From: a virus | IMG/VR virus record: IMGVR_UViG_3300044979_000004 | Location: 1-64,000 of that record | Direction: 5' to 3' (one strand) | Length of the DNA: 64,000 bases | Shown here: piece after piece, positions 1,987-57,159 of the stretch | How positions within the stretch are numbered: position 1 is the first letter of the stretch | How the letters are laid out: each line of letters starts with the position of its first letter | Position numbers and translations under genes: made by a program | The notes under the pieces: generated by a model | What the model was told of the DNA's origin: nothing | Databases searched by the model: none | What the model saw: the letters and a program-made list of their open reading frames with translations, nothing else

Positions 1987-2018
1987 CTTTCAGCGTATTG
2001 AATACGCGGGTTAACGGG

Positions 2019-2636
2019 TTACGGTTTCCAAAAGAACACGGTGACCATTAAGGTTCTGCCCGTGCTATTGTACGTGTTAAATGCGTTGGGAAAGATTCTC
2101 CACCCTTGAGTGGGAAGCATATCATAAAACTCTTTTACTTGCCGTTTAAGTGTTCCACGTGGAACATTCGGCAATTGTCCGCGCCTACGAACATTTACCA
2201 GCATGTTAACTGCTAGTAGGGTTTTGGGCCGAGCATTAGCTAAGAATCTACCTAAGTTGCACATATTGTTACAGTTACTCATAACAGTATGTATTGCCTG
2301 CATACTGTCAAGATAATACAGCCCGTGCAAGTGTTTGCACCATTTAGCGAAATGAGTAAATGCATCCCCCTGAAAGAAAAGGCATTTAGGGTGCATGGCT
2401 GTGAATTCTTCACTGATATCATTTCTGTTAATACCAATGAATCGATCATTGAAATAGGGTTTCCATTGCTGCACATCAAAACTAGGGTGCAGATTCTCGC
2501 CATCAATACAGGACGGCACAGTAACGCATACGTCAAGACCGTTAGAACGATAATGGGTGAGCTTACGATACAGACTGATAATCGCTTTTCTGTGCCGATA
2601 CTTCGGGCTGAGATTGTAACCATTGTTGGCATCCAT
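2019..2636 (-). CDS. Hypothetical protein
   Basis: 205-aa ORF co-oriented and coupled with neighbours. Confidence 0.6.
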   Translation of the reverse strand: MDANNGYNLSPKYRHRKAIISLYRKLTHYRSNGLDVCVTVPSCIDGENLHPSFDVQQWKPYFNDRFIGINRNDISEEFTAMHPKCLFFQGDAFTHFAKWCKHLHGLYYLDSMQAIHTVMSNCNNMCNLGRFLANARPKTLLAVNMLVNVRRRGQLPNVPRGTLKRQVKEFYDMLPTQGWRIFPNAFNTYNSTGRTLMVTVFFWKP

Positions 2637-2724
2637 TACCGTATACCTCGCATGGTCTGTATTAGCAGTCCGATGAAAACCCGTGCATAGACTTCAATCG
2701 TATCGTACGGAGTGGATACTCTCA

Positions 2725-2910
2725 TTAGTTCCCATCCCGGTACTGTAAAGCAGTCTGGTACAGGGTAGCGCGTTTGGCATCCCTTGCAATCGCCTCACGG
2801 GTTACGGCTAGCAGTTGGGCTTTCCGGCGCATGGTCAGAATGTCCAATGCGAGAAAGATGCACACGGCCAGCAAAAAGAACGCTACGAAAATCAAGCTCA
2901 GAATCATCAT
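2725..2910 (-). CDS. Small single-pass membrane protein
   Basis: AAAGGAG RBS before ATG 2910; hydrophobic ILSLIFVAFFLLAVCIFLAL. Confidence 0.65.
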   Translation of the reverse strand: MMILSLIFVAFFLLAVCIFLALDILTMRRKAQLLAVTREAIARDAKRATLYQTALQYRDGN

Positions 2911-3394
2911 GGTTAGTTCTCCTTTAACTTGCATCTATGAGTATCGGCCATTTCTCCAAAAAGTGTCAATGGCAAACTATCAATATAGGGAGAAAATAGT
3001 TGCATGAGGTAACGCGGGTTTGGCCATTCGATTGCATACAAAACGGTCGAATTTTGTTACATTCTGTTACATTTATGCGTTTTGTTCAATGCTGGTGTAT
3101 AACATATTGATTCGATTGAATTTATACATACTGTTACATATCGTAACACTTTGATAGGCGTTTTTAATGGGTCACTCCCCCATAAAATCGACCCATGAGA
3201 GCCTAACCGGGTTAGCGTCGAAAATAGAGGCATTTACTAAATGGTAAACTTTTGCTGTAAGTTGTTGATTCTAAAGGGATGTTACTAACTTATAACTTTG
3301 TATTGCAGAGTATATACTATGTGAGCAATAGCTAACGGCGCAATAGGCGAAAATAAATATTCAAACTTAGAGAGTATGGCAAGTGACGTGCAAC

Positions 3395-3420
3395 AAAAAA
3401 CCCGCCCCATGAGGGACGGG
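3395..3420 (-). terminator. Rho-independent terminator
   Basis: Minus strand CCCGTCCC-TCAT-GGGGCGGG followed by TTTTTT. Confidence 0.8.
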
Positions 3421-3443
3421 CTAATTGCTAGCAGGCTGATAGG

Positions 3444-3623
3444 CTAGATGCTGGCGAGATACTTCCGCGCTGCATGTTTGGCTTGCTCAGCGGGCATATG
3501 CTTTGCGAAAATCGGCCTGATGGCATTGAAGCGGGCACCATAGGCAAGATTACCGGCCTGAGGCGCATGAGTCGATTTGAGAGCTTTGGTAAGCTGGCCT
3601 TTGACTGCCGGAGTCATTTTCAT
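3444..3623 (-). CDS. Small basic early protein (59 aa)
   Basis: Not in track: MKMTPAVKGQLTKALKSTHAPQAG...AARKYLASI*, GAAAGGA RBS, followed by the terminator. Confidence 0.6.
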   Translation of the reverse strand: MKMTPAVKGQLTKALKSTHAPQAGNLAYGARFNAIRPIFAKHMPAEQAKHAARKYLASI

Positions 3624-3683
3624 AGTTCATCCTTTCCGAGATGGGTTATGCGTATTTAATACGCGTATGGGGTTGGGCCTGCG

Positions 3684-3764
3684 TTAGAACATTGCCGCGA
3701 GCATAAAAGCAGTGAGGAACAGAGCAATCCGAAACTCCCATGTACGATACCATGCCGTTACCAT
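3684..3764 (-). CDS. Small hydrophobic peptide (26 aa)
   Basis: AAAGGAG RBS then MVTAWYRTWEFRIALFLTAFMLAAMF*. Confidence 0.5.
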   Translation of the reverse strand: MVTAWYRTWEFRIALFLTAFMLAAMF

Positions 3765-3918
3765 TTGATTCTCCTTTTCAAGGTTGAGGGTTAAAGGTTG
3801 ACGCGTATTTAATACGCGTATGAGGTAATGCTGAATCAATCTAACGGCATTGGATAGAGCTTTGAACATACAACGAATGGGGGAGATTGGTTAGACGCGC
3901 ATTGTTTACGCGTACGGG

Positions 3919-4005
3919 TTAGCGCTGCCGTCTATCTGCAATCCAGAGCAATACCGCTACCATGGCCAGGACGGTGAATAGATCATACAATTCGATACGG
4001 TGCAT
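3919..4005 (-). CDS. Small hydrophobic peptide (28 aa)
   Basis: AAGGGGG RBS then MHRIELYDLFTVLAMVAVLLWIADRRQR*. Confidence 0.45.
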   Translation of the reverse strand: MHRIELYDLFTVLAMVAVLLWIADRRQR

Positions 4006-4082
4006 GTAATCCCCCTTGCCTAGGAATAGAACATACCGGGCAAGTATATGTCAATGGGTTTTGTCTATAACACGTTAATGGG

Positions 4083-4622
4083 ATGGTAGAGACGCGTATT
4101 AAATACGCGTATGGGAGATTCGAGGAATATGGACAAAACGAGAATATGCAAAAACTGCACTACATAAAGACTAAGGCACTGGCGTATCAATATCAAATGA
4201 CTGACGACCAGTTCAAGGCTTTAATGAAGACGCAGGGAAACAAATGCCCGATATGCCTTTGCGTATTCGATACGCTCAAGGTTAAGCCATATATTGACCA
4301 TGACCATTCGTGCTGTGCTGGGCAAGTGACGTGTGGATCGTGCATACGCGGAATTCTATGCAATGCTTGCAATTCGCTGCTAGGCAAGCTGAAAGATTCT
4401 ACAAAGGCATTGCAACGCGCTATAGACTATCTAGACAAGCCTCACATCGTATTGCCGCCCTCACAGCCTGTCAAGCCTATACCTGTGCCGCCTGTCAAGC
4501 TAGAAGCTCTTGTTAAGGCGATGCCCATTTCTACCCCGTCTGAGGCCGCTCTGAAGCGTGAATTAGCTCGACGCAATTATGGACCTAGGCGCAGATTCTT
4601 CACTAGGCTGATAGTTAAGTGA
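4083..4622 (+). CDS. Endonuclease VII-like (His-Me) homing endonuclease
   Basis: QGNKCPIC...YIDHDH...IRGILCNACNSLLG; true start may be downstream. Confidence 0.85.
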   Translation: MVETRIKYAYGRFEEYGQNENMQKLHYIKTKALAYQYQMTDDQFKALMKTQGNKCPICLCVFDTLKVKPYIDHDHSCCAGQVTCGSCIRGILCNACNSLLGKLKDSTKALQRAIDYLDKPHIVLPPSQPVKPIPVPPVKLEALVKAMPISTPSEAALKRELARRNYGPRRRFFTRLIVK

Positions 4623-5041
4623 CCACTTAAGTGTCGAAAATCAAATGGATACATATGTGCGCAAAACTTGCTAATGAATACAAACCATGGTGACCATCCA
4701 TTAAAATCAACAATTTAAATGAGTTACACACGGCATACGCTCGGATGAGGCATTCTTGCCGTACACGTTTACAGCAACTTTAAGTTACTGAGTACTCACT
4801 TATTTATAAAGCCTTTAGAATCAGTAAGTCCCTAACCATCCCTTTTTTCGACCATGCCCGGCAGAGTCTCTCCACCATGCGGCTCGCGGCTGGACACGAG
4901 TCCCGGCCAGAAACTATCCACATCAGTCGGTAGGAGTCCCTAGGTATCTTTTTTGTATTCAGTAGGTTGTAGTACAGAAAAGGACGTTAACCATCCTTGT
5001 TAGTTCTTATATATGTATGCACACAAAAGAACCTCCAGTCA

Positions 5042-5881
5042 TTAGACGGGAGGTTCTTGTTTCATATATTTTAGCAATTGTTCCAAATCAGACACGCTTG
5101 AGTTTCTTTTTACCGTATTACATTTCAAGCATATAATTTTTACATTACCTTTTGTGTACCCTTTAAGAGAGTCTATTCTATCTAAAGACGGGCACCCTTC
5201 TTCCATAGGTCTTAATGGTACGCCCCAATTTAAAATCCTATTACATATAGGACAGCCCTCGGGAGGAGCAGTAAGTAACTCATCTCGGGCTCCATAGTCC
5301 CACTCTCGACCAGACACCTTGCATCTGTCTATGGCATTGCTAAACAACTTCTTGATCCTGCTCCCTCTGGATTCATACCAGGGTTTTGTAGTCTTTTTAG
5401 CTCTTTTCGGAACATGGCCAGTTAGGTACTTGGCGTAACGCCCTTTAGGTTGCTTCTCCCCGCATCCACATTTGCACAATCTATCCGCTCTTACCCTAAT
5501 TTTCCCGCCTCTCCTTTTTCTGCCAGCGGCTTTCTTACATTTTAACGAACAGTATTTCTTTAAGTGTGCGTAACAGGTTGCAGTGTTTACGGTAAAATTG
5601 GAGCTACACTCTTGCAAGGCACAAGTCCTAATTTCTACTTCTCCCCTGCCAATGGCTCGTTCCGCCCCCCGTTTCATAGCAACTGTACTCGGAGTAAAAT
5701 CACAACCGCAATGTTTCTTTCTATCCCTATACAGGTTGCGTCCGTCAACTACTAAAACAGTGCCACAATCACATATACAATTCCACATACTAGAAAACCG
5801 TACATCATTAGGAGCACGATCTTTTACATATAATTTTCCGAACTTGCACCCAGTCAAGTCTTTAGCTTTTGTTTTTACCAC
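5042..5881 (-). CDS. HNH-type homing endonuclease
   Basis: N-terminal DLTGCKFGKL...WNCICDCG and C-terminal CPIC...SLDRIDSLKGYTKGNVKIICLKCN. Confidence 0.8.
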   Translation of the reverse strand: MVKTKAKDLTGCKFGKLYVKDRAPNDVRFSSMWNCICDCGTVLVVDGRNLYRDRKKHCGCDFTPSTVAMKRGAERAIGRGEVEIRTCALQECSSNFTVNTATCYAHLKKYCSLKCKKAAGRKRRGGKIRVRADRLCKCGCGEKQPKGRYAKYLTGHVPKRAKKTTKPWYESRGSRIKKLFSNAIDRCKVSGREWDYGARDELLTAPPEGCPICNRILNWGVPLRPMEEGCPSLDRIDSLKGYTKGNVKIICLKCNTVKRNSSVSDLEQLLKYMKQEPPV

Positions 5882-5894
5882 GCAGTTCTATCCT

Positions 5895-6311
5895 TTATCG
5901 CCTGTAATTGGTTCCGCTCTCTAACAAGTCTTTCAAGTCTTCTATTTCTTCTTCCAACTCGGTGACCTTTCCTCTTAAATACTTTATAGCAAAGTCTTTC
6001 AGTTCTAGGCTATCCGCTGTCAAGAACCTGGTAGCGTCGAATACGTCCTTGTCCGTTACTGGTCCTTTAGGGACTTCTGGTACAACAGTGTCAAGCGGGC
6101 TGTCATCTACAGGTCCGTGGTGGGCAGACTTTGTGTACGCTTTACTCGATTCCTTCGTATTTAATACGTTTGTAGGGCAAGTCTCCACATGCTCTAGACT
6201 ATGGGTGCATCCTGGGCACGGGTGCAGATCGTCATGTAGGATTTTCTCAGGTTGCGTATCTAATACGTTTACGCTTATCACTGACGTGGTTTCTAGTTTA
6301 TATCCGAACAT
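5895..6311 (-). CDS. Hypothetical protein
   Basis: 138-aa ORF with RBS in a tightly packed minus-strand operon. Confidence 0.6.
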   Translation of the reverse strand: MFGYKLETTSVISVNVLDTQPEKILHDDLHPCPGCTHSLEHVETCPTNVLNTKESSKAYTKSAHHGPVDDSPLDTVVPEVPKGPVTDKDVFDATRFLTADSLELKDFAIKYLRGKVTELEEEIEDLKDLLESGTNYRR

Positions 6312-6312
6312 A

Positions 6313-6501
6313 CTACTCTCCTCTCAATTTCTTCTCTAGCAACTCGATCTGGGACTCCAGGGACAGAATCCTGTTGGTTTGCTGCTGAATCTTTACCAAC
6401 AACTCATCATAACCGTTTACAAAGTGAACTGCACATGGGCCGGAATGGTGCTTCGCTCGGCTACAATAACATCCGGGTGGTTGTAGTTTAGAACAATTCA
6501 T
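6313..6501 (-). CDS. Small Cys/His-containing protein
   Basis: CYCSRAKHHSGPCA motif plus short coiled coil; ATGA overlap with upstream gene. Confidence 0.55.
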   Translation of the reverse strand: MNCSKLQPPGCYCSRAKHHSGPCAVHFVNGYDELLVKIQQQTNRILSLESQIELLEKKLRGE

Positions 6502-7118
6502 GCCTCATCTCTGATCTTTCTTGGTCCAGTGGCCGGTGCCATCACGCTCTTAGTCGGTACCGGGGCAGCAGGCTGACTTGCTGATGATACGTTGGCAGCA
6601 TCCTGTCCGGTTTGTGCCAGTCCCCCTAGAAGACCCTGCAATCCTTGAAGTCCTGGGCCTTGTTGCTGACTTTGTTGCTGTTGGGCTTGCTCTTTCTGTA
6701 CAGCCTGAGACTGCTTATCCTTATACATCTGCTCAAGTAATTTGAGTTTATCTTGTTGTGTTGTCAGTTGCTCGTTGATCTTAGAACCGTTCAAGAAGCT
6801 TTTCTTCTTCTTGGTATTCCTTATCATGGCTTTTTGTAGTTCTATCTGCTGTTTAAGTTTTGCCTTTTGGTCTTCATCGTCTACCAAACTGTCAATAGTT
6901 TGACCAAGTTTGTACGCCATATCGTTTGACAAATCCTTCAGAGTCACATAATCGTCATAGCTATTTACAGGAAGTATTTGACCAGGAGGCGGCTCTAGGG
7001 TATTTGCGGCCAGCGGTTTGTACATAAACTTATCAAGCACGTTTGGAGTATCATAGTTCAAAATATCACCCATGCAATCGTCCGGTAATTTTAGCGTATT
7101 AAATACGTCAAGTGTCAC
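6498..7118 (-). CDS. Hypothetical coiled-coil, Gln-rich protein
   Basis: 206-aa ORF ending GPRKIRDEA. Confidence 0.6.
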   Translation of the reverse strand: MTLDVFNTLKLPDDCMGDILNYDTPNVLDKFMYKPLAANTLEPPPGQILPVNSYDDYVTLKDLSNDMAYKLGQTIDSLVDDEDQKAKLKQQIELQKAMIRNTKKKKSFLNGSKINEQLTTQQDKLKLLEQMYKDKQSQAVQKEQAQQQQSQQQGPGLQGLQGLLGGLAQTGQDAANVSSASQPAAPVPTKSVMAPATGPRKIRDEA

Positions 7119-7456
7119 TACGCCTCATCTCTGATCAGCCGTCCGGGTCTTTGCTCTTTAACCTGTGCCCCATCGTGCTTATGCTGGTCGCAGAATATCC
7201 CTAACTGTATCCATATATCATCTGGCACTTTCAACATAGTGATCTTGTCGAAGTCGATCTGTAGAATCTCTTGACAGGATTTGCAGTAGGCGCGGCAGTC
7301 CATCCCTCCGGATACAAGGTGTCTGGATTGGAGGACTACGTTAAAATTCGAGAGTCGAGCAATACCAATCATGGTTTCTTGCTCGATCCCTCGCTTAGAG
7401 TTTGCGTACAGAGACGACGCGGGGCCTCCGAATTTTATCTCTGCGCCAAAGTCCAT
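7118..7456 (-). CDS. Hypothetical protein (possible Zn ligands)
   Basis: CKSC...FCDQHKH; ends PGRLIRDEA. Confidence 0.6.
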   Translation of the reverse strand: MDFGAEIKFGGPASSLYANSKRGIEQETMIGIARLSNFNVVLQSRHLVSGGMDCRAYCKSCQEILQIDFDKITMLKVPDDIWIQLGIFCDQHKHDGAQVKEQRPGRLIRDEA

Positions 7457-7457
7457 G

Positions 7458-8135
7458 CTAGTCCTTTTCTATTTCTATCAGCCACGGCTTATTAACCGGC
7501 TCATATGCTTCATTACAGATTGCCGCATTGTAGAATTCTGTTCCGTTGGTACCGTACAAGTTTGTGTGCCCGTATCCGCCGTGAATATGGCCGAAGATAT
7601 GTACCCTTGGTCTGATCTTTTCAACCGCATCCATCAAATCTCGGCATCCTAGATGGTCATACGCGCCGAAATATGGCTCGGTTAGAGGCACCATTTTGTC
7701 AAGAATACCATGCGGCGGTCCATGGGTGATCAGAACGTCCGTGTCGGCAGGAATATTATCCCAATACTCCTTAATCTTCGGGCCACGGTGGACGTTAAAG
7801 GCCCAGTCATAAAACCACGGCTGGATTGGTGAGCCGTAGAATTTGAATCCGGCGATGTCTACTCCACTGTCTTGCAGGTAGATCACTCCTCGATCAAACT
7901 TTGACAGGCAGTAAGAGATGTCAGACTCAAACATCCGGTCATGATTCCCGGCCACTAGAATTTTATCATTGTGCGGTTGGGCAGAGAACCACTCCCCGAA
8001 GTCCTTAACCTCGGAGTGCCGGTATCCTGATCCCATCAGGTCGCCTGCAAACACTAACACATCAGCATCAGGCAGTTTTACTGACCGATGGTAGGTATGG
8101 GTGTCTGAGAAAGCTGCGATACTAAGCTTGGACAT
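7458..8135 (-). CDS. Calcineurin-like metallophosphoesterase
   Basis: SDTH, AGDL, AGNHD, ITHGPP, FGHIH motifs. Confidence 0.92.
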   Translation of the reverse strand: MSKLSIAAFSDTHTYHRSVKLPDADVLVFAGDLMGSGYRHSEVKDFGEWFSAQPHNDKILVAGNHDRMFESDISYCLSKFDRGVIYLQDSGVDIAGFKFYGSPIQPWFYDWAFNVHRGPKIKEYWDNIPADTDVLITHGPPHGILDKMVPLTEPYFGAYDHLGCRDLMDAVEKIRPRVHIFGHIHGGYGHTNLYGTNGTEFYNAAICNEAYEPVNKPWLIEIEKD

Positions 8136-8307
8136 TCTCTTCTACCCTTTCAACAGACAGCCAAGTGCCGCTTGCGTAGACTTTTACCATGACGTTCCCA
8201 TTAGTTACAAATAGCCTATCACCTTTTGATACTAAAAAAGAATCAGCAGTAACTGTCTCAACTGCTGATTCGCCATTTACGTTTACTCTTACTCTGATTG
8301 TTGACAT
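8122..8307 (-). CDS. Hypothetical protein
   Basis: AGAGGAG RBS before MSTIRV... Confidence 0.55.
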   Translation of the reverse strand: MSTIRVRVNVNGESAVETVTADSFLVSKGDRLFVTNGNVMVKVYASGTWLSVERVEENVQA

Positions 8308-8906
8308 TATTTCTCCTCTTTGTTCCAAATCTTTTCAAATTTCTTAGGCTTCCAAGTTGCCTGCTTTGCGTCCATCTTCTTCTTCACATACTCAATAGAG
8401 ATTGGGAAGAAGTTCTGAGCGTCAACTCCCACGTCAAAGCACAGTGGCGATTCGTCCATTGTACTCGATGGGTTAGCTTCCGGCAAAGCGGAATGTGAGT
8501 GGCCGTACAAATGGTAGGCTCCACGGTGACTACCATTCCACACTCTACAGGCGTAGTGGTGTAGGTAGATGTTTGGAAAGCCTTTTATCTGCAAGTTATA
8601 TGCGTCTCTGACGAATACAAAACTATCTTGAAGAATCTTATTATCAATTATGCGTTCGTCATGGTTGCCATAAATGAAATGATGTCTTCCGTTCAGAGCA
8701 TACCGAATCTCAAGGCACTCCTTGAGAGGGCATGTTTTCCAGAACATATCGCCTAGATGGAACACGTCATCGTTTTTACCAACTACCGAGTTGTGGTTGG
8801 CAATTAGTTTTTCCTTCATGTCCTGCAATCCGGAAAACGGCCTTCCTGTAAACCGGATGATGTTCAAATGTCCAAAATGTTCATCGGATGTGAAATGGGT
8901 TCCCAT
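8307..8906 (-). CDS. Calcineurin-like metallophosphoesterase
   Basis: FTSDEHFGH, HLGD, GNHD, LYGHSH, DVGVD; start moved to 8906 (AAGGA RBS; the longer ORF overlaps tRNA-Ser). Confidence 0.9.
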   Translation of the reverse strand: MGTHFTSDEHFGHLNIIRFTGRPFSGLQDMKEKLIANHNSVVGKNDDVFHLGDMFWKTCPLKECLEIRYALNGRHHFIYGNHDERIIDNKILQDSFVFVRDAYNLQIKGFPNIYLHHYACRVWNGSHRGAYHLYGHSHSALPEANPSSTMDESPLCFDVGVDAQNFFPISIEYVKKKMDAKQATWKPKKFEKIWNKEEK

Positions 8907-8920
8907 GTGTTCCTTTCTTG

Positions 8921-9015
8921 TGGAGGATGGCGTGTGATTCGAACACACGGAACCGGGTTCTGGCCGGTCCTTCGGTTTTCAGGACCGATGCCTTAAACCG
9001 CTCGGCCAGCCATCC
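8921..9015 (-). tRNA. tRNA-Ser(UGA)
   Basis: GGATGGC/GCCATCC acceptor, long variable arm, TCGGT-CCTGAAA-ACCGA anticodon arm (C33), CCA end. Confidence 0.9.
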
Positions 9016-9033
9016 TAATTCAATTGTAACTTT

Positions 9034-9062
9034 ATTATACCACAGGTCGCAGAAAAATGCAA
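9034..9062 (-). promoter_or_regulatory. Sigma70-type promoter
   Basis: TTGCAT-17-TATAAT with TG extension, upstream of tRNA-Ser. Confidence 0.7.
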
Positions 9063-9099
9063 GAGGTTTGTAGAAATTTTCGGGGGTTTTGACACAGGA

Positions 9100-9186
9100 T
9101 GGTCGGCCCAGAGGGACTTGAACCCCCATGCCCATTAGGGCGCTTGATTCTAAGTCAAGTGCGTCTGCGAATTTCGCCATGGGCCG
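9100..9186 (-). tRNA. tRNA-Leu(UAG)
   Basis: CGGCCCA/TGGGCCG acceptor, CTTGA-CTTAGAA-TCAAG arm, long variable arm, ACCA. Confidence 0.92.
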
Positions 9187-9190
9187 AATT

Positions 9191-9263
9191 TGGTGCCGGA
9201 GGCAGGCTTTGCACCTACTTCGGAAAGGTTATGAGCCTTCCTAGCACTGCTACGCGCCCCGGC
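9191..9263 (-). tRNA. tRNA with CAU anticodon (Met or Ile2), atypical D arm and T loop
   Basis: GCCGGGG/CTCCGGC acceptor, GAAGG-CTCATAA-CCTTT arm, T loop TGCAAAG, ACCA. Confidence 0.75.
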
Positions 9264-9353
9264 TAATCTTTTACAGCGCACTTGCGGAACAAATTACTGC
9301 CTTCTATGGTGCGCTCACAGGTTCTTTAGCAGTCTACTGTTATCCGCCAACTT

Positions 9354-9536
9354 CTAACTCGGCCTGCGGCAATTCCACTGTGCAGGACTTGGGACACTCA
9401 CTGCCAGTTTCATGTAAACCGGACTTCCGCCTCTTGCGTCGTCGTGAACATCACATTCTGGTCCTAGATCAGTTAGTTTTCCAATCTTCTCTTTAGTCCT
9501 TCCGCACACTGGGCACTTGTAGCTGTAAATTGCCAT
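9354..9536 (-). CDS. FmdB-like zinc-ribbon protein
   Basis: MAIYSYKCPVCG...PEC...M pattern; AGGAG RBS. Confidence 0.75.
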   Translation of the reverse strand: MAIYSYKCPVCGRTKEKIGKLTDLGPECDVHDDARGGSPVYMKLAVSVPSPAQWNCRRPS

Positions 9537-9640
9537 GTTACTCCTAAAATCATATATCCAGGGAATCGTCGTGGTCGATTAAGGTCAACGTCTTGACCCA
9601 CTAGCCCTCATGCACACCCACGCCAGCGGCTCGTTCAAAA

Positions 9641-9727
9641 TGGTCGGGGTAGGAGGATTCGAACCTCCAGTGATCTAATCTCCGATTTCCAAAACCGGAC
9701 GGCTCCCAACTACCGTTTTACACCCCG
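9641..9727 (-). tRNA. tRNA-Pro(UGG) with enlarged variable region
   Basis: CGGGGTG/TACCCCG acceptor, CCGGT-TTTGGAA-ATCGG arm, GGAGG-TTCGAAT-CCTCC T arm, ACCA. Confidence 0.85.
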
Positions 9728-9728
9728 A

Positions 9729-10007
9729 TTAACTAAAATGTACGATACCGTCTGAATCTGTTATTGCCGAAGAAGCATCAACCCAGAATCCGTTGACAGC
9801 TTCGCCTGAATCTCGGTTCCTGAGTGTGAATTGTGTTGTGCAGTTGCATCCATTGATCCGGAAGCCTCTGGCCTTCACGTTGATGGGAACCTCCCCGTCA
9901 TTATACACGATAGGGTAGTCCAAGTCACCAGTAATTTTTACTCGAAAAGCCATAGTCTCCTCAATGGGGTGGCCGGTGGAAGTCGAATCCACCAAAACTG
10001 GAGTCAC
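9729..10007 (-). CDS. Hypothetical protein
   Basis: ORF in operon; start may be the internal MAFRVK preceded by GAGGAG. Confidence 0.5.
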   Translation of the reverse strand: MTPVLVDSTSTGHPIEETMAFRVKITGDLDYPIVYNDGEVPINVKARGFRINGCNCTTQFTLRNRDSGEAVNGFWVDASSAITDSDGIVHFS

Positions 10008-10057
10008 AGTCTAGCCCAACGTACCGATAGTTGGCACGGCCACAGTCAATTAGTCAA

Positions 10058-10522
10058 TTAGTCGTGCTCGTAGTTTTCAGTCTCAACGCCGGTCTTAGTC
10101 ACTACGACCTTAGCGTGATCACCGAACATTCCGAGATAGTCATCGTCATCAAACAGTTCCAAGAAGTTCAGAATTTCCTTGACCGCTGAATCATTAACTG
10201 AAAGAGCCGTTTGGTCAACGTACTTTTTTCCGTCATAGTACTTCAGATTTAAAAGGCCAAAATATTCTCGCTCCTCGTCTTCATCGGTGAATTTAAAATC
10301 GATGTCATCAACATTAGCGCTAAATTCACATGTTTCACCATCATTGAAATAGGGTGTGTACTGCCTCCACGCAAAGTACTCCAAAGTGGGAAACTCTTGG
10401 AACAACGTGCTAGTAGCTTCCTTGAACAAAATCTTTGCGCTCTCACGAATCTTCTTGCTAAGTTCCTCACGCTGAGACCGAAGGTCTTTCAGCTTGTCTA
10501 CTGCTTCTTGATTCAAACTCAT
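10058..10522 (-). CDS. Conserved acidic phage protein
   Basis: WRQYTPYFNDGETCEF and FGDH...YEHD motifs, which I recognise from phage proteins next to DUF6915 genes. Confidence 0.7.
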   Translation of the reverse strand: MSLNQEAVDKLKDLRSQREELSKKIRESAKILFKEATSTLFQEFPTLEYFAWRQYTPYFNDGETCEFSANVDDIDFKFTDEDEEREYFGLLNLKYYDGKKYVDQTALSVNDSAVKEILNFLELFDDDDYLGMFGDHAKVVVTKTGVETENYEHD

Positions 10523-10914
10523 AGTTCGACCTTTCTCCTCACTGTATCACGTTTTGCTAATTTTGCAAATGATGGCGGTGCGCCAGCACCTTTTACCATC
10601 CACTCTTGTAATTCAATTTCCTGAAGGAAGTCCTGGGCAGATGGAATATATCGTCCGCCATAGTCTTCAAGAACGTGTTGCTCTCCAATATCCCTTACGG
10701 AGACTTTCCTGTTATCACTATTGGTAATGTTGTGCCCGAATACTTTCTCAAGAATCACAGACAGGAACCAAGCGTTATGAGTCAGTGCCCTATGTCTGCT
10801 ATCTGCGATCTGTCCTTTTGACGAGTCGAGTAAGTCATGAATAGTAAGGTAGTCCTCTGGAACCCCTCCCCACTTCCTTGCTGAAGACAACGCGTGAATG
10901 TATGGCTTAGCCAT
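10519..10914 (-). CDS. DUF6915-like protein
   Basis: PYIHALSSARKWGG.PEDY..IH...DSSK...HRALTH...GEQHVLED. Confidence 0.75.
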   Translation of the reverse strand: MAKPYIHALSSARKWGGVPEDYLTIHDLLDSSKGQIADSRHRALTHNAWFLSVILEKVFGHNITNSDNRKVSVRDIGEQHVLEDYGGRYIPSAQDFLQEIELQEWMVKGAGAPPSFAKLAKRDTVRRKVEL

Positions 10915-10925
10915 GATTCCTTTCT

Positions 10926-11002
10926 TGGGATTGGGGCAGGATTCGAACCTGTCGTTTCCACCGCTAATCAGTGGCGTCCTTGTCCACTAGACGACCCGCA
11001 CC
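10926..11002 (-). ncRNA. Degenerate tRNA-Glu-like element
   Basis: Glu-type D arm GTC-TAGTGGACAAG-GAC, CCACT/GGTGG stem with loop GATTAGC, GGTTCGAATCC T arm, poorly paired acceptor stem. Confidence 0.55.
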
Positions 11003-11020
11003 ATAAATCTTTTCTGAATC

Positions 11021-11163
11021 GGTGGGGATAGGTGGGAAACGAACCAATTCCTGTGTACTTCAGGATCACCAACTTCTTCTTCGTGGTTTTACATGTACAT
11101 TAGCCGTCGCCTCTGTCGATAATGTAAAACGGTGGAAGCGCTCTTCCCTTGAGCTATATCCCC
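11021..11163 (-). ncRNA. tRNA-like RNA with greatly extended anticodon arm
   Basis: GGGGATA/TATCCCC acceptor plus ACC, canonical D arm GCTC-AAGGGAA-GAGC, long GTTTTACAT/ATGTAAAAC stem in place of the anticodon loop. Confidence 0.65.
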
Positions 11164-11169
11164 ATAATC

Positions 11170-11578
11170 TCATGTGACCAGTTTCACACTTTCGTCAAGC
11201 CGGTCAAAAGCCGTCATATGTTTGTGCCATAACGCAACAACTTCAATTCTCGATTAATGTTGTCAAAACGCCGTTCTTGTCTTTTATTTGAGGCTCATGA
11301 AAGACGGATGAAACGTTGAGCCTTCTCAATCTTTGCCACTATTCTTTTACAAAGTCAGTGGCCAACTCCGTGTCCTAACTTCTTAGGCCATTACCAGATC
11401 GTTAACGTTTGTCTCAACGCCATAGTTGCTGTTTCCAGTAACCATGTTGGCAAGAAGTTCGTCAACAAGTCCAGTCTGCGAGTTTGTGCTTGCAGTTATT
11501 GGTTTACGCAGTTACGGCTGTCGTCTACCGGCACGTCCACAACACCTTGAATAGTACAATCGAAACCTGGACGCACCC
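11170..11578 (-). ncRNA. ssrA: tmRNA coding piece (5' acceptor strand, PK1, tag ORF, downstream pseudoknots); 3' boundary approximate
   Basis: Starts GGGTGCGTCCAGGTTTCGA; PK1-like CGGT..GCCG-TAA; resume context ATAACT-GCA; tag 11493-11383 ending LVMA*; pseudoknots GCCACT/AGTGGC and AGGCTCA/TGAGCCT. Confidence 0.88.
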
Positions 11579-11797
11579 AAAATTCAGCTAAGTTACCCAT
11601 TTGTAGGACTCGAACCTACGGCCATGTTATCTTAGCTTCATTTAGCATTGTCAACCCTGAGATTTGGCCGGGATCGAACCTGCACTTTTCTCCGACTTTG
11701 CTAAATTGATTGTGTAGAACTTATCGTTTCAACCAGCTAGCCAGCTAGCCAGCCAGCTAACGGGGTCTGGTTCTACACAAATTGTTAATACCAAACT

Positions 11798-11926
11798 TGG
11801 TGGATGCGGCGGGAATTGAACCCGCGTCTTATACTACAACATGCGCTTCATACGTGCGTACTTGTTTCCGGGTGCCTTTTGCCGAAGCTAATACAGCGAA
11901 GGTATCTAAAGAGCTACTTCACCCGG
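11798..11926 (-). ncRNA. ssrA: tmRNA acceptor piece (helix-2 strand, T arm, CCA), upstream of the coding piece; 5' boundary approximate
   Basis: Ends GACGCGGGTTCAATTCCCGCCGCATCCACCA; CGCATCC pairs with GGGTGCG giving G3:U70; TAGTATAA and GCACGT pair with TTGTACTA and ACGTGC of the coding piece. Confidence 0.88.
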
Positions 11927-11941
11927 CGTATTTAATACGTT

Positions 11942-12190
11942 TTACAGCTTGCTGATATCGGCCTTTACATCGGCAACAGCAGTCTTAACATCAGACTCAA
12001 CTGTTGCTACGGCGCTCTTAACTACAGGCGTTGCAGCAGCGACTACCACTCCAACCTTGGACTTCAGAGCAGCGATGTCTGACTTTGCTGCGGCGATGTC
12101 CGCATTTGCTGCTGTGCGGAACTTTGAATTGGTGACATACTCAACGCCACCAACGATAAGGGAAAGTACTACTCCGACTTCAAGAATCAT
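11942..12190 (-). CDS. Small membrane-anchored Ala/Val-rich protein
   Basis: AGGAG RBS, N-terminal hydrophobic helix, amphipathic repeats. Confidence 0.65.
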   Translation of the reverse strand: MILEVGVVLSLIVGGVEYVTNSKFRTAANADIAAAKSDIAALKSKVGVVVAAATPVVKSAVATVESDVKTAVADVKADISKL

Positions 12191-12198
12191 TTGTTCTC

Positions 12199-12657
12199 CT
12201 AAGTTTCAATTACATTAGGGGCCTCACAGCCCTCCACCACCTGATGTTTCCGGTCAGGCACGGGTTCTATCTGTCGAGCAACTTCTTTAACTTGTAAAGC
12301 TATTATACCACGCTGTCTCGGCCCTGTCAAGTACTTTTCACGTCTTTTTTTCTCTTTTTCTCTTGCAGCCCGTTCCAAAGCAACTGGTAATGCTCTATCT
12401 CGTTGAGCCTTCGTAGCTTCTTCACAAAACTTAGCTATCTCGTGCAGACTCGCGGAGTCAATCATGTTGGCTAAAGGGAAGAATACATAGGCAATAAAGT
12501 TCGTCTGCCATCTAATGTACCCTAACATTTGCCGGTTGTGTCTGTTGAAAGGAGTGTATTTCCTGGTTTTAGCTCCTTTTTTGACCGGCCCATCGTCTCT
12601 AAAGTCAATTTTAGGGCCTCGGAACCATCCTAGGGCTATCCGTTCAATCTCGATCAT
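12199..12657 (-). CDS. Hypothetical protein (probably leaderless)
   Basis: 152-aa ORF; ATG 7 nt after a -10 box. Confidence 0.6.
   Translation of the reverse strand: MIEIERIALGWFRGPKIDFRDDGPVKKGAKTRKYTPFNRHNRQMLGYIRWQTNFIAYVFFPLANMIDSASLHEIAKFCEEATKAQRDRALPVALERAAREKEKKRREKYLTGPRQRGIIALQVKEVARQIEPVPDRKHQVVEGCEAPNVIET
12302..12330 (-). promoter_or_regulatory. Consensus sigma70 promoter facing the tmRNA/tRNA cluster
   Basis: TTGACA-17-TATAAT with TG extension. Confidence 0.8.
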
Positions 12658-12663
12658 GTAACC

Positions 12664-12692
12664 ATTGTATCAAGAATTTGCCGACTTGTCAA
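12664..12692 (-). promoter_or_regulatory. Sigma70 promoter
   Basis: TTGACA-17-TACAAT, ATG 12657 at +7. Confidence 0.75.
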
Positions 12693-15632: not shown

Positions 15633-15638
15633 AAAGCT

Positions 15639-15667
15639 ATTCTACCACACACCTTAGCCGAAGTCAA
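15639..15667 (-). promoter_or_regulatory. Sigma70 promoter of DNA polymerase
   Basis: TTGACT-17-TAGAAT, ATG 15632 at +7. Confidence 0.75.
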
Positions 15668-46404: not shown

Positions 46405-46848
46405 ATGATCACGAGTCGATACATAACTGCGGAAGACTACCCGTTATTGGAAACAAGTTTAGCTGCTGATCCCTACCATAAAGGAACGTCAATAGATTTC
46501 TTCAAAGAGCAGAACACCGTTACAAGTGTGTATTCATTTGATGATGAGTTGATCTTGTTCACGAGAGGAAAAGTAGTATCAACCAGTGGACCGGCGTTCA
46601 TACAACTTGACATTCAATTTATCAACAACGAAAGTCGGGCTAAAAACCTGATAGTCATGTTGACAGGATTTTATGAATTGGAGAAGAAATCCAGACAAGA
46701 AGGATTTGCCGGATTCATATTCCACAGCGATGTACCTTTACTCCGGAAGTTTTGCATTCGCAGGCTAGGATTCAGCGAATGGGGAGACTTCTTGGTGAAA
46801 GTTTTTGAACAAGCGCCCCTTGACACGGGCCTAGGAGTTGAGGTATAA
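46405..46848 (+). CDS. Hypothetical protein, possibly GNAT-fold tail assembly factor
   Basis: LRKFCIRRLGF motif; position between nozzle and ejection genes. Confidence 0.5.
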   Translation: MITSRYITAEDYPLLETSLAADPYHKGTSIDFFKEQNTVTSVYSFDDELILFTRGKVVSTSGPAFIQLDIQFINNESRAKNLIVMLTGFYELEKKSRQEGFAGFIFHSDVPLLRKFCIRRLGFSEWGDFLVKVFEQAPLDTGLGVEV

Positions 46849-47642
46849 TGGCTTATACACATACACGGACCATCTTCGAATGGGACGAGAAGCGTATTAA
46901 ATACGTCAAGGTTTATGATGAAGGCTACGAATGGGACGGACCAGTAGATCAAGCGTGCGGCTCGACTCCGCAACAGAACCAGATTGAAGGTGCGCAGCAA
47001 AACTTTATGACCCAAGCGCAGTCTCAGGCGTCAACGGTATTTGGGGGAGCATCACAGGCGTTTAACAGTCTGATGAGCGCGTTTGCACCAATCGTCGCAG
47101 CCGGTCCAAGTCAACAAGGCTTCTCACAGCAACAGCTTTCGAATCTCAATTCCCAGGCTATCACACAGACGGGCATTTCTTACAAGAACGCTAAAGAAGC
47201 AGTCGGAGAGGCACAATCATCCGTTGGTGGCGGCAACGTATCTCTACCAAGTGGAACCCAAACTGGAGAGGATTTGGGACTGGCCGAAAGTGCCGCTAAC
47301 CAAACTTCCAGCGAACTTGGGCAGATTACACAAGCCAATTATGAAAAAGGTAATGCAAATTATAATGCCGCCGTATCTGGAGAGCTAGCAGCGCCGGGTG
47401 TTTTTTCGGCTTCAACCGGAGCAACCGGGGCGGCTACAAGCGCAGGATCAGCAGCCGCAAGCACGGCCAATCAAATCGCGTCGCAGAATAATTCATGGGT
47501 AGGAGCCGTTACCGGCCTAGCCGGGGCGTTGGGCGGTGCAGCATTAGGTGACCCGGCTCTGTTTGCAGGAAGTAGCAGTTCACAGGGCGCACAAGATGCC
47601 CAACAGGTATCGAACTATCAATCAGATGGAAATGGATTCTAG
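46848..47642 (+). CDS. Putative DNA ejection protein (small)
   Basis: N-terminal YEWDGPVDQACG leader, Gln/Ala/Gly-rich, C-terminal glycine zipper. Confidence 0.6.
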   Translation: MAYTHTRTIFEWDEKRIKYVKVYDEGYEWDGPVDQACGSTPQQNQIEGAQQNFMTQAQSQASTVFGGASQAFNSLMSAFAPIVAAGPSQQGFSQQQLSNLNSQAITQTGISYKNAKEAVGEAQSSVGGGNVSLPSGTQTGEDLGLAESAANQTSSELGQITQANYEKGNANYNAAVSGELAAPGVFSASTGATGAATSAGSAAASTANQIASQNNSWVGAVTGLAGALGGAALGDPALFAGSSSSQGAQDAQQVSNYQSDGNGF

Positions 47643-54251: not shown

Positions 54252-54280
54252 TTGACAAATGGTTTGCCATTTGGTATAAT
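54252..54280 (+). promoter_or_regulatory. Consensus sigma70 promoter
   Basis: TTGACA-17-TATAAT, ATG 54289 at +9. Confidence 0.85.
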
Positions 54281-54990: not shown

Positions 54991-55004
54991 TGTAGGAGAA
55001 AATT

Positions 55005-55253
55005 ATGGATAAGGCAATACCATTCGCAGAGAGGCCCGCAATACAGTTCATGTGTCTGCCCAAAAAAGAAGGCATTGAGGGAAAAATTGTGTTAAACCCG
55101 GACCAGGCTGGATTCGGGACGGTCATTTTGGAATTTGTTAATGTATCCGGGTGTGTGACGCCACAGAATAGAACTGTTTCTGTATATCCCACTCCCTCTG
55201 AGCTTTTTGAATTAAAAAAGACTCTTGATTTGTACTTCTCGGAAAAGACGTAA
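55005..55253 (+). CDS. Hypothetical protein
   Basis: AGGAG RBS. Confidence 0.5.
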   Translation: MDKAIPFAERPAIQFMCLPKKEGIEGKIVLNPDQAGFGTVILEFVNVSGCVTPQNRTVSVYPTPSELFELKKTLDLYFSEKT

Positions 55254-55432
55254 ACGAGTCAGGGCGAGAGAGGAACATGCTGTATGATTACGAAAACGAA
55301 GAAATGTAGTATAGGAGGAAAATGGTAACAGTTACTTTAACGGCGGCTGTAGTGAAATGGCTCATCGTGCTGTACGGAGTCAATGTAGTTTTGCTAGCAG
55401 CCAATTTGTACCTCAAGTTCAAGAAATAGCGC

Positions 55433-55461
55433 TTGACAGGCTCCTGCAATTCTGATACAAT
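55433..55461 (+). promoter_or_regulatory. Sigma70 promoter
   Basis: TTGACA-17-TACAAT. Confidence 0.75.
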
Positions 55462-55549
55462 GGTTTTGTAGATTGAACCGTGGTCATTTGTGCAGCTTTC
55501 CGGTTGAACACAAAAGTGAGGATAGGCGGTTCAATCTACACGAAGGAGA

Positions 55550-55762
55550 ATGATGCTATTTGAGGATGATATTGGATACATGACGTTTCATTTCGACTCG
55601 GAAGGAGACCCTGTGGACTTGGAAATGTGTGCCAATGTGCCTGAGATTCTAAATGACCATCAAATGATGGAAAAAATTTCATCGTATCTAATCAGGAGAC
55701 TAAATGGAAATTCAGTACAGTCGCAAAACCAAGCTGATCGAAACAGCTTACCGTCTAGGTGA
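55550..55762 (+). CDS. Hypothetical protein
   Basis: AAGGAG RBS. Confidence 0.45.
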   Translation: MMLFEDDIGYMTFHFDSEGDPVDLEMCANVPEILNDHQMMEKISSYLIRRLNGNSVQSQNQADRNSLPSR

Positions 55763-55854
55763 GTTTTTTACGACCAAGATTCAACACCTTCTAGTCACTT
55801 CTCAGTTACATGATTGGGACAAGGTAACAACTTCACAGAAGTAAATGGAGGCAG

Positions 55855-57159
55855 ATGGCAGACGTATCGTATACGCTGGAAGAAGTCATAAGCAATATGA
55901 AGTGGTTTATTGAGCATTACGGCAAAGCCACTCGAAAGGAATACAGAGCAGCCGAAGCCAAAGGCGCTCTCCCAGAAAGTGTCTGGGGAAAGCACTTCAA
56001 GAGTTTCACGGAATTTAAGGAAGCAGCCTCAGCGGAGATTCCAAAGGTGTCCTCCGAAGAAGAGAAGCACGAATTTAAGGACAATGTGTGGAACGTTCAT
56101 ATTCCACAAACTTCGATTCGCACCCTTCCGGAACTGTTGGAACATTGTAAGGTAGACACATCGATCTGGCGCGTTGAGAGGTTCATCGTCAACAAGTGGG
56201 AGATGGGCGCTAAGAATGCAGACGGAGATGTAATTGTTACTCCTTTGTTTCAAGTGAAGGCTACGCTCGTTCAGAAGGATGAGGTCATAGCGGCTCGTAA
56301 AGAAATCGAAGACTTGAAGGAAGAGGCAAAGAAGTTCGCACATGAACCGTTTGATGTTGTGAAGCTAAGTCCTCTACAGTTCTCCGGCAATTCTTTAGAG
56401 ATTCTTATACCTGACCTTCATGCCGGTAAGTTCGCCTGGGGCAAGGAAACAGGTCATCAGGATTATGATACACCCACAGCAATTCAAACGTATGAACGTG
56501 CGTTGGATAACATTTTATCGCAAGCTGCACACTATGTCATAGACGAGATTGTACTAGGTGTTGGCAACGATCTGTTGAACTCAGATGATTACAACAGTCA
56601 GACGACAAAGGGAACTCTAGTCAACAGTGACACGAGGTATCAGAAAACTTACAAAGCTGTGAGACAGATGATTGTACGTGCTGTTGAGAAGTGCCGCACT
56701 TACACAAAGAAGGTAGTCGTAAAGGTAATCCCTGGTAACCATGATACACAGTCGATGTTTACCTTGGGAGATTCCTTGGAATGTTGGTTCCACAATTACA
56801 AGGATGTGGAAATTGACAACGCCCCGACGCCTCACAAGTTCTACACATGGGGAAAAGTTCTTCTAGGCTTTACCCACGGGGACAAAGGAAAGAAGGCCGA
56901 TTACGGAATTTGGATGGCCACAGAGCGTCCAGAAGATTTCGGCAAGTCCAAGTTTCGTGAGATTCATATTGGGCATACACATGGGTTGAAGGTAGATGAA
57001 AAGTTCGGAGTTAGAGTGCGAACATTTGCAGCCCTCTGTCCGCCCGATGCTTGGCACTCTGCGGAACACTTTGTAGGAAACTTGAGACAGGCTGAGGCAA
57101 TTGTCTGGAACAAGGAAGCAGGACGAATTGCGGAGTTTATCCATACGGAGCTAGACTAA
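55855..57159 (+). CDS. Calcineurin-like metallophosphoesterase with N-terminal extension
   Basis: PDLHAGK, GNDLL, PGNHD, THGD, IGHTH. Confidence 0.85.
   Translation: MADVSYTLEEVISNMKWFIEHYGKATRKEYRAAEAKGALPESVWGKHFKSFTEFKEAASAEIPKVSSEEEKHEFKDNVWNVHIPQTSIRTLPELLEHCKVDTSIWRVERFIVNKWEMGAKNADGDVIVTPLFQVKATLVQKDEVIAARKEIEDLKEEAKKFAHEPFDVVKLSPLQFSGNSLEILIPDLHAGKFAWGKETGHQDYDTPTAIQTYERALDNILSQAAHYVIDEIVLGVGNDLLNSDDYNSQTTKGTLVNSDTRYQKTYKAVRQMIVRAVEKCRTYTKKVVVKVIPGNHDTQSMFTLGDSLECWFHNYKDVEIDNAPTPHKFYTWGKVLLGFTHGDKGKKADYGIWMATERPEDFGKSKFREIHIGHTHGLKVDEKFGVRVRTFAALCPPDAWHSAEHFVGNLRQAEAIVWNKEAGRIAEFIHTELD

Follow-up and report, generated by a model that had tools for sequence, protein, structure and literature searches.

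The genome of an uncultured soil phage, represented by the IMG/VR virus record IMGVR_UViG_3300044979_000004 (89,199 bp, 93% complete), carries many dispersed copies of a palindrome, CGTAT-N3-ATACG (CGTATNNNATACG), which was analyzed here in a window comprising positions 1-64000 of that record and, where indicated, in the rest of the record and in related genomes. The sites, their number, where they lie and how far they are conserved were all observed directly. The excess of this palindrome is real, non-random and shared within a clade, and the palindrome is a cis-acting signal at the front ends of genes. We tentatively favor the view that the copies constitute a network of operators, or roadblocks, for a dimeric DNA-binding regulator encoded by the phage itself, with the binding, the identity of the protein and the sign of its effect being inferred. 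A small operon encoding a 134-amino-acid (aa) orphan gene product, designated P0005 (84,697-85,101), is a candidate source of this putative regulator.

Exactly 14 matches were found in the window, at every position that a first-pass annotation of this stretch had given and with eight of them within the first 7.2 kb, as it had also noted; 100 dinucleotide-preserving shuffles yielded an expectation of 0.02 and a maximum of 1. The whole record holds 19 exact copies, the five beyond the window starting at 71882, 77661, 84432, 85129 and 87921, and no copy of a reversed, non-complemented control pattern. Only six further one-mismatch sites stand beside the 19 exact copies, and the motif is therefore sharply defined. 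An extension to G-CGTAT-N3-ATACG-C was seen in 13 of the 19 copies, and 15 carry T..A at the inner positions, so that the full form of the motif is GCGTATT-N-AATACGC. Codon-preserving shuffles, which the first-pass annotation had named as a comparison that might account for the copies, did not reproduce their number: within crude open reading frame (ORF) calls, the exact motif was observed 14 times, whereas 300 shuffles averaged 0.7 and never exceeded 4; the looser form CGTA-N5-TACG was observed 17 times, with a shuffle average of 1.96 and a maximum of 6. A codon-phase artefact was likewise rejected, since the same-phase spacings of 2 and 8 nt gave three and no copies, respectively, and the spacing of 5 gave 23. 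Among palindromes with 5-bp arms and gaps of 0-7 nt, and with 4-bp arms and gaps of 0-9 nt, this motif family alone stood out. A literature search found the motif strings in no paper.

With regard to its geometry, the motif consists of half-sites of 4-5 bp whose centers lie 9-10 bp apart across an AT-rich middle. In the cluster at 3.6-4.1 kb, additional half-sites abut the motif (ATACG|CGTAT), and 19-bp palindromes result. The arms are invariant and the center is variable, and the variants break pairs, none of them being compensatory; this argues for base reading on duplex DNA rather than for a mere hairpin. No information was found in any column beyond 1 nt on either side of the motif when 44 sites from four genomes were aligned. 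Taken as a whole, the invariant arms, the pair-breaking variants, the spacing of half-sites by about one helical turn, the abutting half-sites and the lineage-specific excess suggest a site read by a protein on the duplex.

The placement of each copy was read manually along the local gene direction, and gave the following picture for the window, including two variants:

1994-2006, minus strand: copy with the sense reading CGTATTCAATACG, situated between a 205-aa gene, whose stop lies 12 nt away, and the AAA ATPase gene, whose ATG follows after 16 nt.
3651-3663, minus strand: copy extended by a third half-site that abuts it (catACG|CGTAT...); the ATG of a 59-aa gene (3444-3623) follows after 27 nt.
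3804-3816, minus strand: copy within ACGCGTATTAAATACGCGT, a perfect palindrome of 19 bp; a hydrophobic 26-codon ORF starts 40 nt further on.
3898-3910, minus strand: weak variant with two mismatches, CGTAAACAATGCG, 7 nt past the stop of a 29-codon ORF.
4095-4107, at a gene divergence point: copy within a 19-bp palindrome; an endonuclease VII-like gene on the plus strand has its ATG 22 nt away, and a 29-codon ORF on the minus strand begins at a distance of 90 nt.
4262-4274, plus strand: copy inside the endonuclease VII-like gene, not conserved in the relative G002.
6156-6168, minus strand: copy upstream of an HNH endonuclease gene, in a stretch that may or may not be coding.
6255-6267, minus strand: copy in that same stretch, with the sense reading CGTATTAGATACG.
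7095-7107, minus strand: copy between a 112-aa gene, which stops 10 nt before it, and a 191-aa gene (6498-7073), whose ATG lies 21 nt further on.
11927-11939, minus strand: copy 3 nt past the stop that ends an 82-aa ORF; the gene for the permuted transfer-messenger RNA (tmRNA) begins 69 nt downstream.
17225-17237, plus strand: copy 8 nt past a stop; the first gene of a paralogous pair has its ATG 20 nt downstream.
19708-19720, plus strand: copy upstream of the second gene of that pair, 19 nt from its ATG.
30577-30589, plus strand: copy directly past the upstream stop, the first of a capsid-leader pair 30 bp apart, 225 nt before the major capsid gene.
30607-30619, plus strand: variant with one mismatch, CGTATTGTTTACG, completing the capsid-leader pair; the matching place in G002 holds an exact copy.
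46893-46905, plus strand: copy covering codons 16-20 of a 264-aa gene; a perfect TTGACA-18-TATAAT promoter lies 45 nt upstream.
55863-55875, plus strand: copy with the center CGT, at codons 3-7 of a DNA repair exonuclease gene.

In the record as a whole, 10 of the 19 exact copies lie in short non-coding spacers (1994, 3651, 3804, 4095, 7095, 11927, 17225, 19708, 30577 and 85129), typically 0-12 nt past a stop codon and 16-27 nt ahead of the next ATG. Around start codons, copies cluster from -41 to +45, those upstream lying 11-41 nt before the starts, and three copies fall within the first 20 codons of genes (84432, 55863 and 46893); the remaining ones are deep within genes, and the two RNA ligase genes account for two of these. 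With automatic ORF calls, start proximity amounted to 42% against 16% for random positions in the record, 43% against 14% in the relative G001 and 39% against 16% in the relative G003; for the phage studied here, the manual reading of sites, though a matter of individual judgment, is better than the automatic calls. Copies were also concentrated within 6 kb of the ATPase gene start, where nine were found against 3.2 expected from a uniform distribution, with seven against 2.2 in G003, six against 2.7 in G006 and four against 1.6 in G007. The first-pass annotation had seen copies before the ATPase gene, the tmRNA, two fibre genes and the capsid leader, all of which are indeed in place, and the two genes behind the copies at 17225 and 19708 do have paralogous N-termini; their identity as fibre genes did not find confirmation. 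Family searches were run singly for 30 ORFs and as a batch for the other 111, with the best 25 of 34 matched Pfam families shown; the gene at 17258-17791 gave no Pfam or PHROG match, and that at 19740-20630 no fibre family among the families shown in the batch search. As for the two variants that it had added to the exact copies, that at 30607 stands as a one-mismatch form and that at 3898 is weak.

At 3400-4107 on the minus strand, three units, each with a motif copy followed by a tiny ORF (29, 26 and 59 codons), are followed by a strong terminator. A strain contig from a soil metagenome run joins position 3625 to 4094, with 26 other letters between them and without two of the motif-plus-small-ORF units, and the same contig retains one copy, some 30 nt ahead of the 59-aa gene. 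The strain contigs obtained from four DNA runs were short, and none of 40 listed differences (of 663) falls in a motif copy. Adjoining the cluster, a 460-nt AT-rich non-coding stretch at 2940-3400, bounded by a strong terminator and a TTGACA-18-GATACT promoter, contains repeated ATGTAACAG words and could be a replication origin.

The best relative in the databases is Tunturiibacter phage Tunturi_3, with a capsid protein 89% and a DNA polymerase 44% identical to those of the record. Tunturi_3 is a 97.6-kb podovirus of an Acidobacterium, obtained as a plaque-forming podovirus and the sole isolate of a lineage of podoviruses of 90-100 kb (accessible sections of PMC11924767); the words promoter, tmRNA, RNA polymerase and palindrom did not occur in those sections of the Tunturi virus paper (PMC11924767). 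The record, about 88-90% coding, is organized into a minus-strand block (62.9-89.2 kb and 0-15.6 kb) with replication, RNA-repair and many small genes, and a plus-strand block (15.7-62.9 kb) with the structural genes. The window contains 12 tRNA genes predicted by ARAGORN, 11 of which were also predicted by Rfam, and the permuted tmRNA at 11458-11857 on the minus strand (Rfam RF04321). The AAA ATPase groups with classical Cdc48/Vps4-type AAA proteins and not with replication initiators in a PDB sequence search, and a search of metagenome contigs with this protein returned only proteins 22-31% identical. A near-identity DNA search of a phage collection gave no match for window positions 1-20000, and a search of genome contigs with the ribonucleotide reductase protein gave stray contigs of metagenome-assembled genomes (MAGs) only.

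Conservation among relatives, the second comparison named in the first-pass annotation, was also found. Around 15 of 268 capsid-related IMG/VR records were examined whole, and 80 were fetched. A scan of IMG/VR for the 15-mer hit 48 contigs; in the loci fetched, multiple copies of the 13-mer were confined to kin of this phage and a single unrelated contig (G004), whose two copies, 157 bp apart, may be chance. A further pair, in locus L257, proved to be a longer hairpin of the repetitive extragenic palindromic (REP) type and not a motif site. G001 (31.8 kb) and G002 (21.9 kb), fragments from one metagenome, are collinear with positions 0.4-47.5 kb of the record at about 70% nucleotide identity, and together hold eight copies with a 3-nt spacer and eight with a 4-nt spacer, G001 alone having seven of each. 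The complete 99-kb relative G003 holds eight exact copies, and ten further capsid relatives hold 6, 4, 3, 2, 1, 0, 0, 0, 0 and 0. Counts of the looser CGTA-N5-TACG were 23 in the record, 22 in G006, 18 in G003, 11 in G007, 11 in Tunturi_3, 1 in G008 and 0 in G010; it is the top palindrome with 4-bp arms in the record, G006, G003 and G007, and joint second in Tunturi_3, where GAAG at gap 8 leads with 13 copies. Tunturi_3 has no exact copy, and whether it shares the motif is uncertain, its 11 loose copies being little above other frequent palindromes there. Such a lineage-specific motif is expected of a site evolving with its protein.

Individual sites are kept as well. The site upstream of the ATPase gene is exact in the record and G003 and present as variants in G001 and G006; the capsid-leader pair is kept in the record and G002, and the site upstream of the tmRNA in the record and G001, the latter with two copies there (N3 and N4). 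At the paralogous genes, G003 has a one-mismatch form, CGTACTTGATACG, 13 nt before the homologue of the gene behind 17225, and G001 has a copy at the place matching 19708. One-mismatch forms of the 46893 site occur at the same codons in G002 and G003. Sites within genes are not conserved; the copies in the RNA ligase genes are not kept in G003 or Tunturi_3. At the gene that carries the 55863 copy, G003, G006, G007 and Tunturi_3 have a sigma-70 promoter 23-36 nt upstream and no motif; an exchange between promoter and motif at this exonuclease gene is ambiguous, since the copy in the record lies inside the first codons.

The clearest single result was obtained at the P0005 gene, for which no family was found and which is present in all of the complete genomes examined that bear the motif, with homologues in the record, G003, G006 and G007, and none detected in Tunturi_3, G008 or G010. 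Its promoter, TTGACA-17-TGgTAYYAT, is conserved in these four genomes, and in three of them a motif copy follows the -10 box, at 13 nt in the record, 18 nt in G003 and 6 nt in G006, with none in G007. A copy at the start region of a strong promoter takes the position of a repressor, and a regulator's own gene is the usual place for it; judged by this position, the copy is a putative operator, and P0005 itself is a candidate for the regulator. The first-pass annotation had found no cognate binding protein evident in the window, which holds true, the candidate lying outside it.

A dimer of the putative regulator would bind duplex DNA such as GCGTATTAAATACGC, each subunit reading one CGTA(T) half-site, with the half-sites about one helical turn apart across an AT-rich and easily deformed center. 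The protein would probably come from the small operon at 84.0-85.1 kb, outside the window, with P0005 or its neighbor, P0006, as the candidates. By occupying the start site of the sigma-70-type promoter that drives its gene, it would restrain its own production, and at the other copies the bound protein would block initiation or passage of the host RNA polymerase. The level or timing of expression of a regulon would thereby be set, and this regulon would include the AAA ATPase, the tiny membrane-peptide genes, a homing-endonuclease gene, the tmRNA, the two paralogous tail-region genes and the capsid gene.

A series of observations weighs against the operator network. Firstly, no DNA-binding domain, such as helix-turn-helix (HTH) or ribbon-helix-helix (RHH), was found in any ORF, P0005 and P0006 included, among the families shown. 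The structural model of P0005 is confident only at residues 70-125 (predicted local distance difference test, pLDDT, 77-87; strand-helix-strand-strand), and it matched no known fold, with no Foldseek hit at E <= 0.001 and VIA-align Z < 5; the association of P0005 with the motif stems from seven mutually related genomes. Secondly, a symmetric duplex site predicts neither the bias of the center, which reads TAA in the sense direction in 11 copies and TTA in two in the record, nor the form with the 4-nt spacer: the 3-nt-spacer copy at 30577 aligns with a 4-nt-spacer copy, CGTATATGAATACG, in G002, and all eight 4-nt-spacer copies of G001 and G002 point one way and are purine-rich in sense. The sense strand of the record is A-rich, which may explain part of the center bias. 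Thirdly, start proximity by automatic ORF calls is only about 2.5-fold in excess in the record, G001 and G003, the excess is absent in G007 and Tunturi_3, and a looser test of a Shine-Dalgarno (SD) sequence plus start was not significant. Finally, a good sigma-70 promoter was present within 90 nt upstream of 2 of the 19 copies in the record and of 6 of the 44 across four genomes, as compared with about 7% at random positions, and most copies would hence have to act as roadblocks inside operons. Two genes, moreover, have a sigma-70 promoter in one phage where another carries the motif: the ATPase gene has the promoter in Tunturi_3 and the motif in the record and G003, and tRNA-Ser has the promoter in the record (TTGCAT-17-TGgTATAAT, 18 nt upstream) and the motif in G001, where a 4-nt-spacer copy (L052 11687-11700) ends exactly at the first base of the tRNA predicted by ARAGORN. 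These replacements fit a promoter better. The dimer-site network proposed by the first-pass annotation thus draws support from the geometry, the abutting half-sites, the conservation and the copy at the +1 region of the P0005 promoter in three of four genomes, and, as a strictly symmetric site, would not predict the center bias and the 4-nt spacer, which keep a promoter or an RNA-hairpin reading alive.

Perfect promoters of the host type are present in this phage. Seven sites in the record match TTGACA-16/18-TATAAT at 12 of 12 positions, most with an extended TG, among them 12302-12330 (minus), 15709-15737 (plus), 37851-37879 (plus), 46820-46849 (plus), 54252-54280 (plus) and, outside the window, 85637-85665 (minus). 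Two such promoters directly precede homing-endonuclease-type genes, and the promoter before the DNA polymerase gene is kept in the record, G001, G003, G006 and Tunturi_3. The structural block has few canonical promoters. Since perfect host-type promoters exist, the host polymerase reads ordinary promoters, and the palindrome is a second kind of signal.

The main rival to the operator network, possible though clearly less probable, is that the motif forms the core of a class of phage promoters without a -35 box, at which the host RNA polymerase, redirected by a phage factor, would start at or just after the right arm. The siting of copies 11-41 nt before starts, and also before the tmRNA in the record and flush with the 5' end of tRNA-Ser in G001, would suit such promoters, as would the pair of copies heading the capsid leader, the 4095 copy exactly between diverging genes, the orientation of copies, biased with transcription, and the scarcity of canonical promoters in the structural block. 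The mutual replacement of sigma-70 promoter and motif at the ATPase gene and tRNA-Ser belongs here too, as does the strain variant that dropped two units and retained one copy ahead of the 59-aa gene. A conserved -35 or flank is lacking, as in T4 late and Thermus phage middle and late promoters. However, a promoter needs no perfect palindrome, the best -10-like hexamers in the motif are without the usual last T, and no sigma factor, phage RNA polymerase or known co-factor was detected (Pfam and PHROG, among the families shown). Nor does a promoter explain why the copies at 84432, 55863 and 46893 lie behind the start codon of the gene to be served, why a copy stands just downstream of a strong sigma-70 promoter in the record, G003 and G006, or why most copies in G006, G007 and Tunturi_3 are within genes and away from starts.

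Other promoter-type and terminator assignments of the motif were rejected. The aligned flanks of the 44 sites in four genomes show no conserved TTGACA/TATAAT pair at a spacing of 16-18 bp, which speaks against a sigma-70 promoter; a promoter of the extracytoplasmic function (ECF) type with CGTA as -10 element lacks an AAC-type -35 box; start codons are too close for an activator site at -40 or further upstream; and a promoter for a T7-like RNA polymerase is opposed by the lack of conservation more than 1 nt past the motif and of any RNA_pol family match among the families shown. As intrinsic terminators, only 17225 and 30577, two of the 14 window copies, were caught by a lax scan, and their stems have three GC pairs and no true T run.

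An RNA element, that is, a 6-bp stem with a 3-4-nt loop in 5' untranslated regions, bound by a protein or marking processing or stability, appears unlikely. Four of four copies folded with predicted energies of -5.9 to -6.0 kcal/mol, loops of 3 or 4 nt are found at orthologous places, and the copies lie around ribosome-binding regions (-41 to +45 of start codons) with an orientation biased along transcription. On the other hand, it is the stem letters that are invariant and the loop that varies, the reverse of what hairpin-binding proteins usually read, and no compensatory or G-U changes occur among the variants. The preferred inner T..A pair would leave a loop of 1 nt, the abutting third half-sites would be senseless in RNA, and a hairpin flush with a tRNA 5' end would be expected to hinder RNase P.

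Slightly less likely still is a role of the DNA outside transcription, with the copies serving as hotspots of cassette exchange or as replication, nicking or recombinase sites. The concentration of copies within 6 kb of the ATPase start, beside small variable ORFs and an AT-rich non-coding region, would agree with it, and so would the strain contig without the stretch between two copies and the two paralogous genes, each with a copy, which constitute an insertion relative to G001. The phage has no fewer than six genes of these nuclease types, at least four of them endonuclease VII-like and two HNH, and an Acidobacteriaceae genome carries five copies in 1.7 kb beside two serine recombinases. 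No nuclease or recombinase is linked to the site, however, no resolvase was found in the record among the families shown, siting just before ribosome-binding sites is not predicted, and the genome would fall apart if both strands of the palindrome were cut or nicked.

Very improbable are hairpin promoters of the N4 type, for which one of the large orphan structural proteins would have to be an unrecognized virion RNA polymerase. N4 early promoters have the same geometry, with a 5-bp stem and a 3-nt loop, the cluster near small genes ends in a strong terminator, and the largest orphan ORFs, of 888-965 aa, gave no family match. The lineage comprises podoviruses of 90-100 kb (accessible sections of PMC11924767). 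Against these points, there was no RNA polymerase family match, no DxDxD motif in ORFs of at least 300 aa other than the large terminase, capsid and tail-region genes also have copies ahead of them, the stems are weak and rich in AT, and the center base follows no fixed template-strand rule.

A host-encoded factor was considered with two MAGs, which serve as indirect stand-ins for the true host. The Acidobacteriaceae MAG G016 has 13 copies against 9 of the control, and the Bryobacteraceae MAG G017 has 9 against 27. The lack of excess in a host-like Acidobacteriaceae genome argues for a factor encoded by the element and not by the host, and a host regulon motif such as an SOS box was rejected on the same counts, by the same indirect comparison. 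In G016, contig 4, at about 1,102,100-1,103,810 (L299 4600-6320), five of these 13 copies (CGTAY-N3-RTACG) occur in 1.7 kb between a resolvase-type and a large serine recombinase gene; four of them lie in an ORF-free gap of about 700 nt, each followed by a similar segment of about 60 nt. This stretch is another mobile element, and none of the proteins of the surrounding 12 kb resembles a phage protein. In locus L272 of an unrelated genome record, the 15-mer GCGTATTWAATACGC is found twice, around and inside the TTGACA-17-TACAAT promoter of a hicA/hicB pair, so the motif sequence can plausibly serve as an operator.

Several known systems offer themselves for comparison with the operator network. 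The stoperators of L5 and other cluster A phages are some 20-30 copies of an asymmetric 13-bp word bound by the prophage repressor of a temperate phage. The motif shares with them about 20 dispersed copies in early and late regions, many of which, by the manual reading, are in short co-directional spacers, and one copy at the promoter of the (candidate) regulator; in contrast, it is a perfect palindrome, and an orientation bias can be seen in its center only. Searches with Pfam and PHROG found no ParB/ParA, repressor, integrase or partition families among the families shown. The motif resembles L5 stoperators in layout and is not filed there, since the site is not asymmetric and no sign of a temperate life style was seen among the families shown; with no ParB, partition or lysogeny genes found among those families, partition and L5-type prophage silencing, both raised by the first-pass annotation, are unlikely. 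The likeness to toxin-antitoxin operators lies in the 15-mer at the hicA/hicB promoter of L272, where binding is itself presumed, and in the phage copy on the P0005 start region in three of four genomes; such operons have one or two copies, whereas there are about 20 dispersed ones here, and no HicB, RHH or HTH domain was detected in the phage among the families shown.

The late promoters of T4 (TATAAATA), used with gp55/gp33, and the extended -10 promoters of Thermus phage P23-45, used with gp39/gp76, are asymmetric words. As with these, a short conserved AT-rich word stands upstream of several gene classes without a -35, and canonical host promoters are found elsewhere; the word studied here differs in being palindromic with GC clamps, and no cognate factor was detected. 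The PeSL cassette of T4-type phages combines an early promoter with a stem-loop of about 50 nt. As with PeSL, a plastic region has small variable ORFs flanked by recurring regulatory words, and a strain differs by whole word-plus-ORF units, but the word here has only 13-19 bp and occurs in the structural block as well. The N4 hairpin promoters share the 5-bp stem, the 3-nt loop and the cluster near small genes, and differ in that no virion RNA polymerase was found here, copies are genome-wide and stems are AT-rich.

Some further features were observed in these genomes. In the capsid leader, a hairpin word, CAGTCGGATTACTG, occurs twice, at 30650-30665 and 30718-30733, is kept in the record, G002 and G003 with close variants in Tunturi_3, and looks like an RNA operator in the capsid mRNA leader. 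Gaps of 500-700 nt without a convincing minus-strand ORF follow both RNA ligase genes (70,800-71,495 and 76,970-77,454 of the record) and may hold RNA genes. A repeat family, GCGCAAACCTGAGAAGCGCA and ACTCGCAGCC, has 12-14 copies in the record, and G001 has a different 12-copy repeat; both are probably tandem coding repeats. In Tunturi_3, four tandem 13-bp repeats (AAACGTACTCAAT) lie at 79,610-79,662 (L002 29610-29662) in a 1.6-kb unannotated gap, the last of them ending in a one-mismatch form of the motif, CGTACTCAATACG. Next to the 7095 copy, the adjacent orphan proteins of 6498-7073 and 7118-7456, both on the minus strand, share the five C-terminal residues IRDEA, and the latter, of 112 aa, has a Cys/His pattern that suggests a zinc site; a role of IRDEA as a docking tail was rejected, as it is absent from G003.

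For phages that infect Acidobacteriota, a phylum dominant in soil, very little has been learned about gene regulation, and the motif provides a concrete and testable handle on it, made up of a short defined word, a candidate partner gene and a conserved operator-promoter pair; the cultured Tunturi_3 has the looser core only. If the regulator were confirmed, it would represent a new regulator family with a regulon that includes a phage tmRNA and the capsid gene, and if the copies were promoters, they would define a new phage promoter class in a host otherwise using canonical promoters. It would be a long shot, yet conceivable, that a clade of large, apparently lytic podophages of Acidobacteria runs a private regulon through a new-fold protein of the P0005 family, which would shut its own promoter and act on some 20 palindromic roadblocks to make separately timed cassettes, and that the phage and the integrated element of the Acidobacteriaceae genome, with its cluster of the same word beside recombinases, could read or jam each other's switches.

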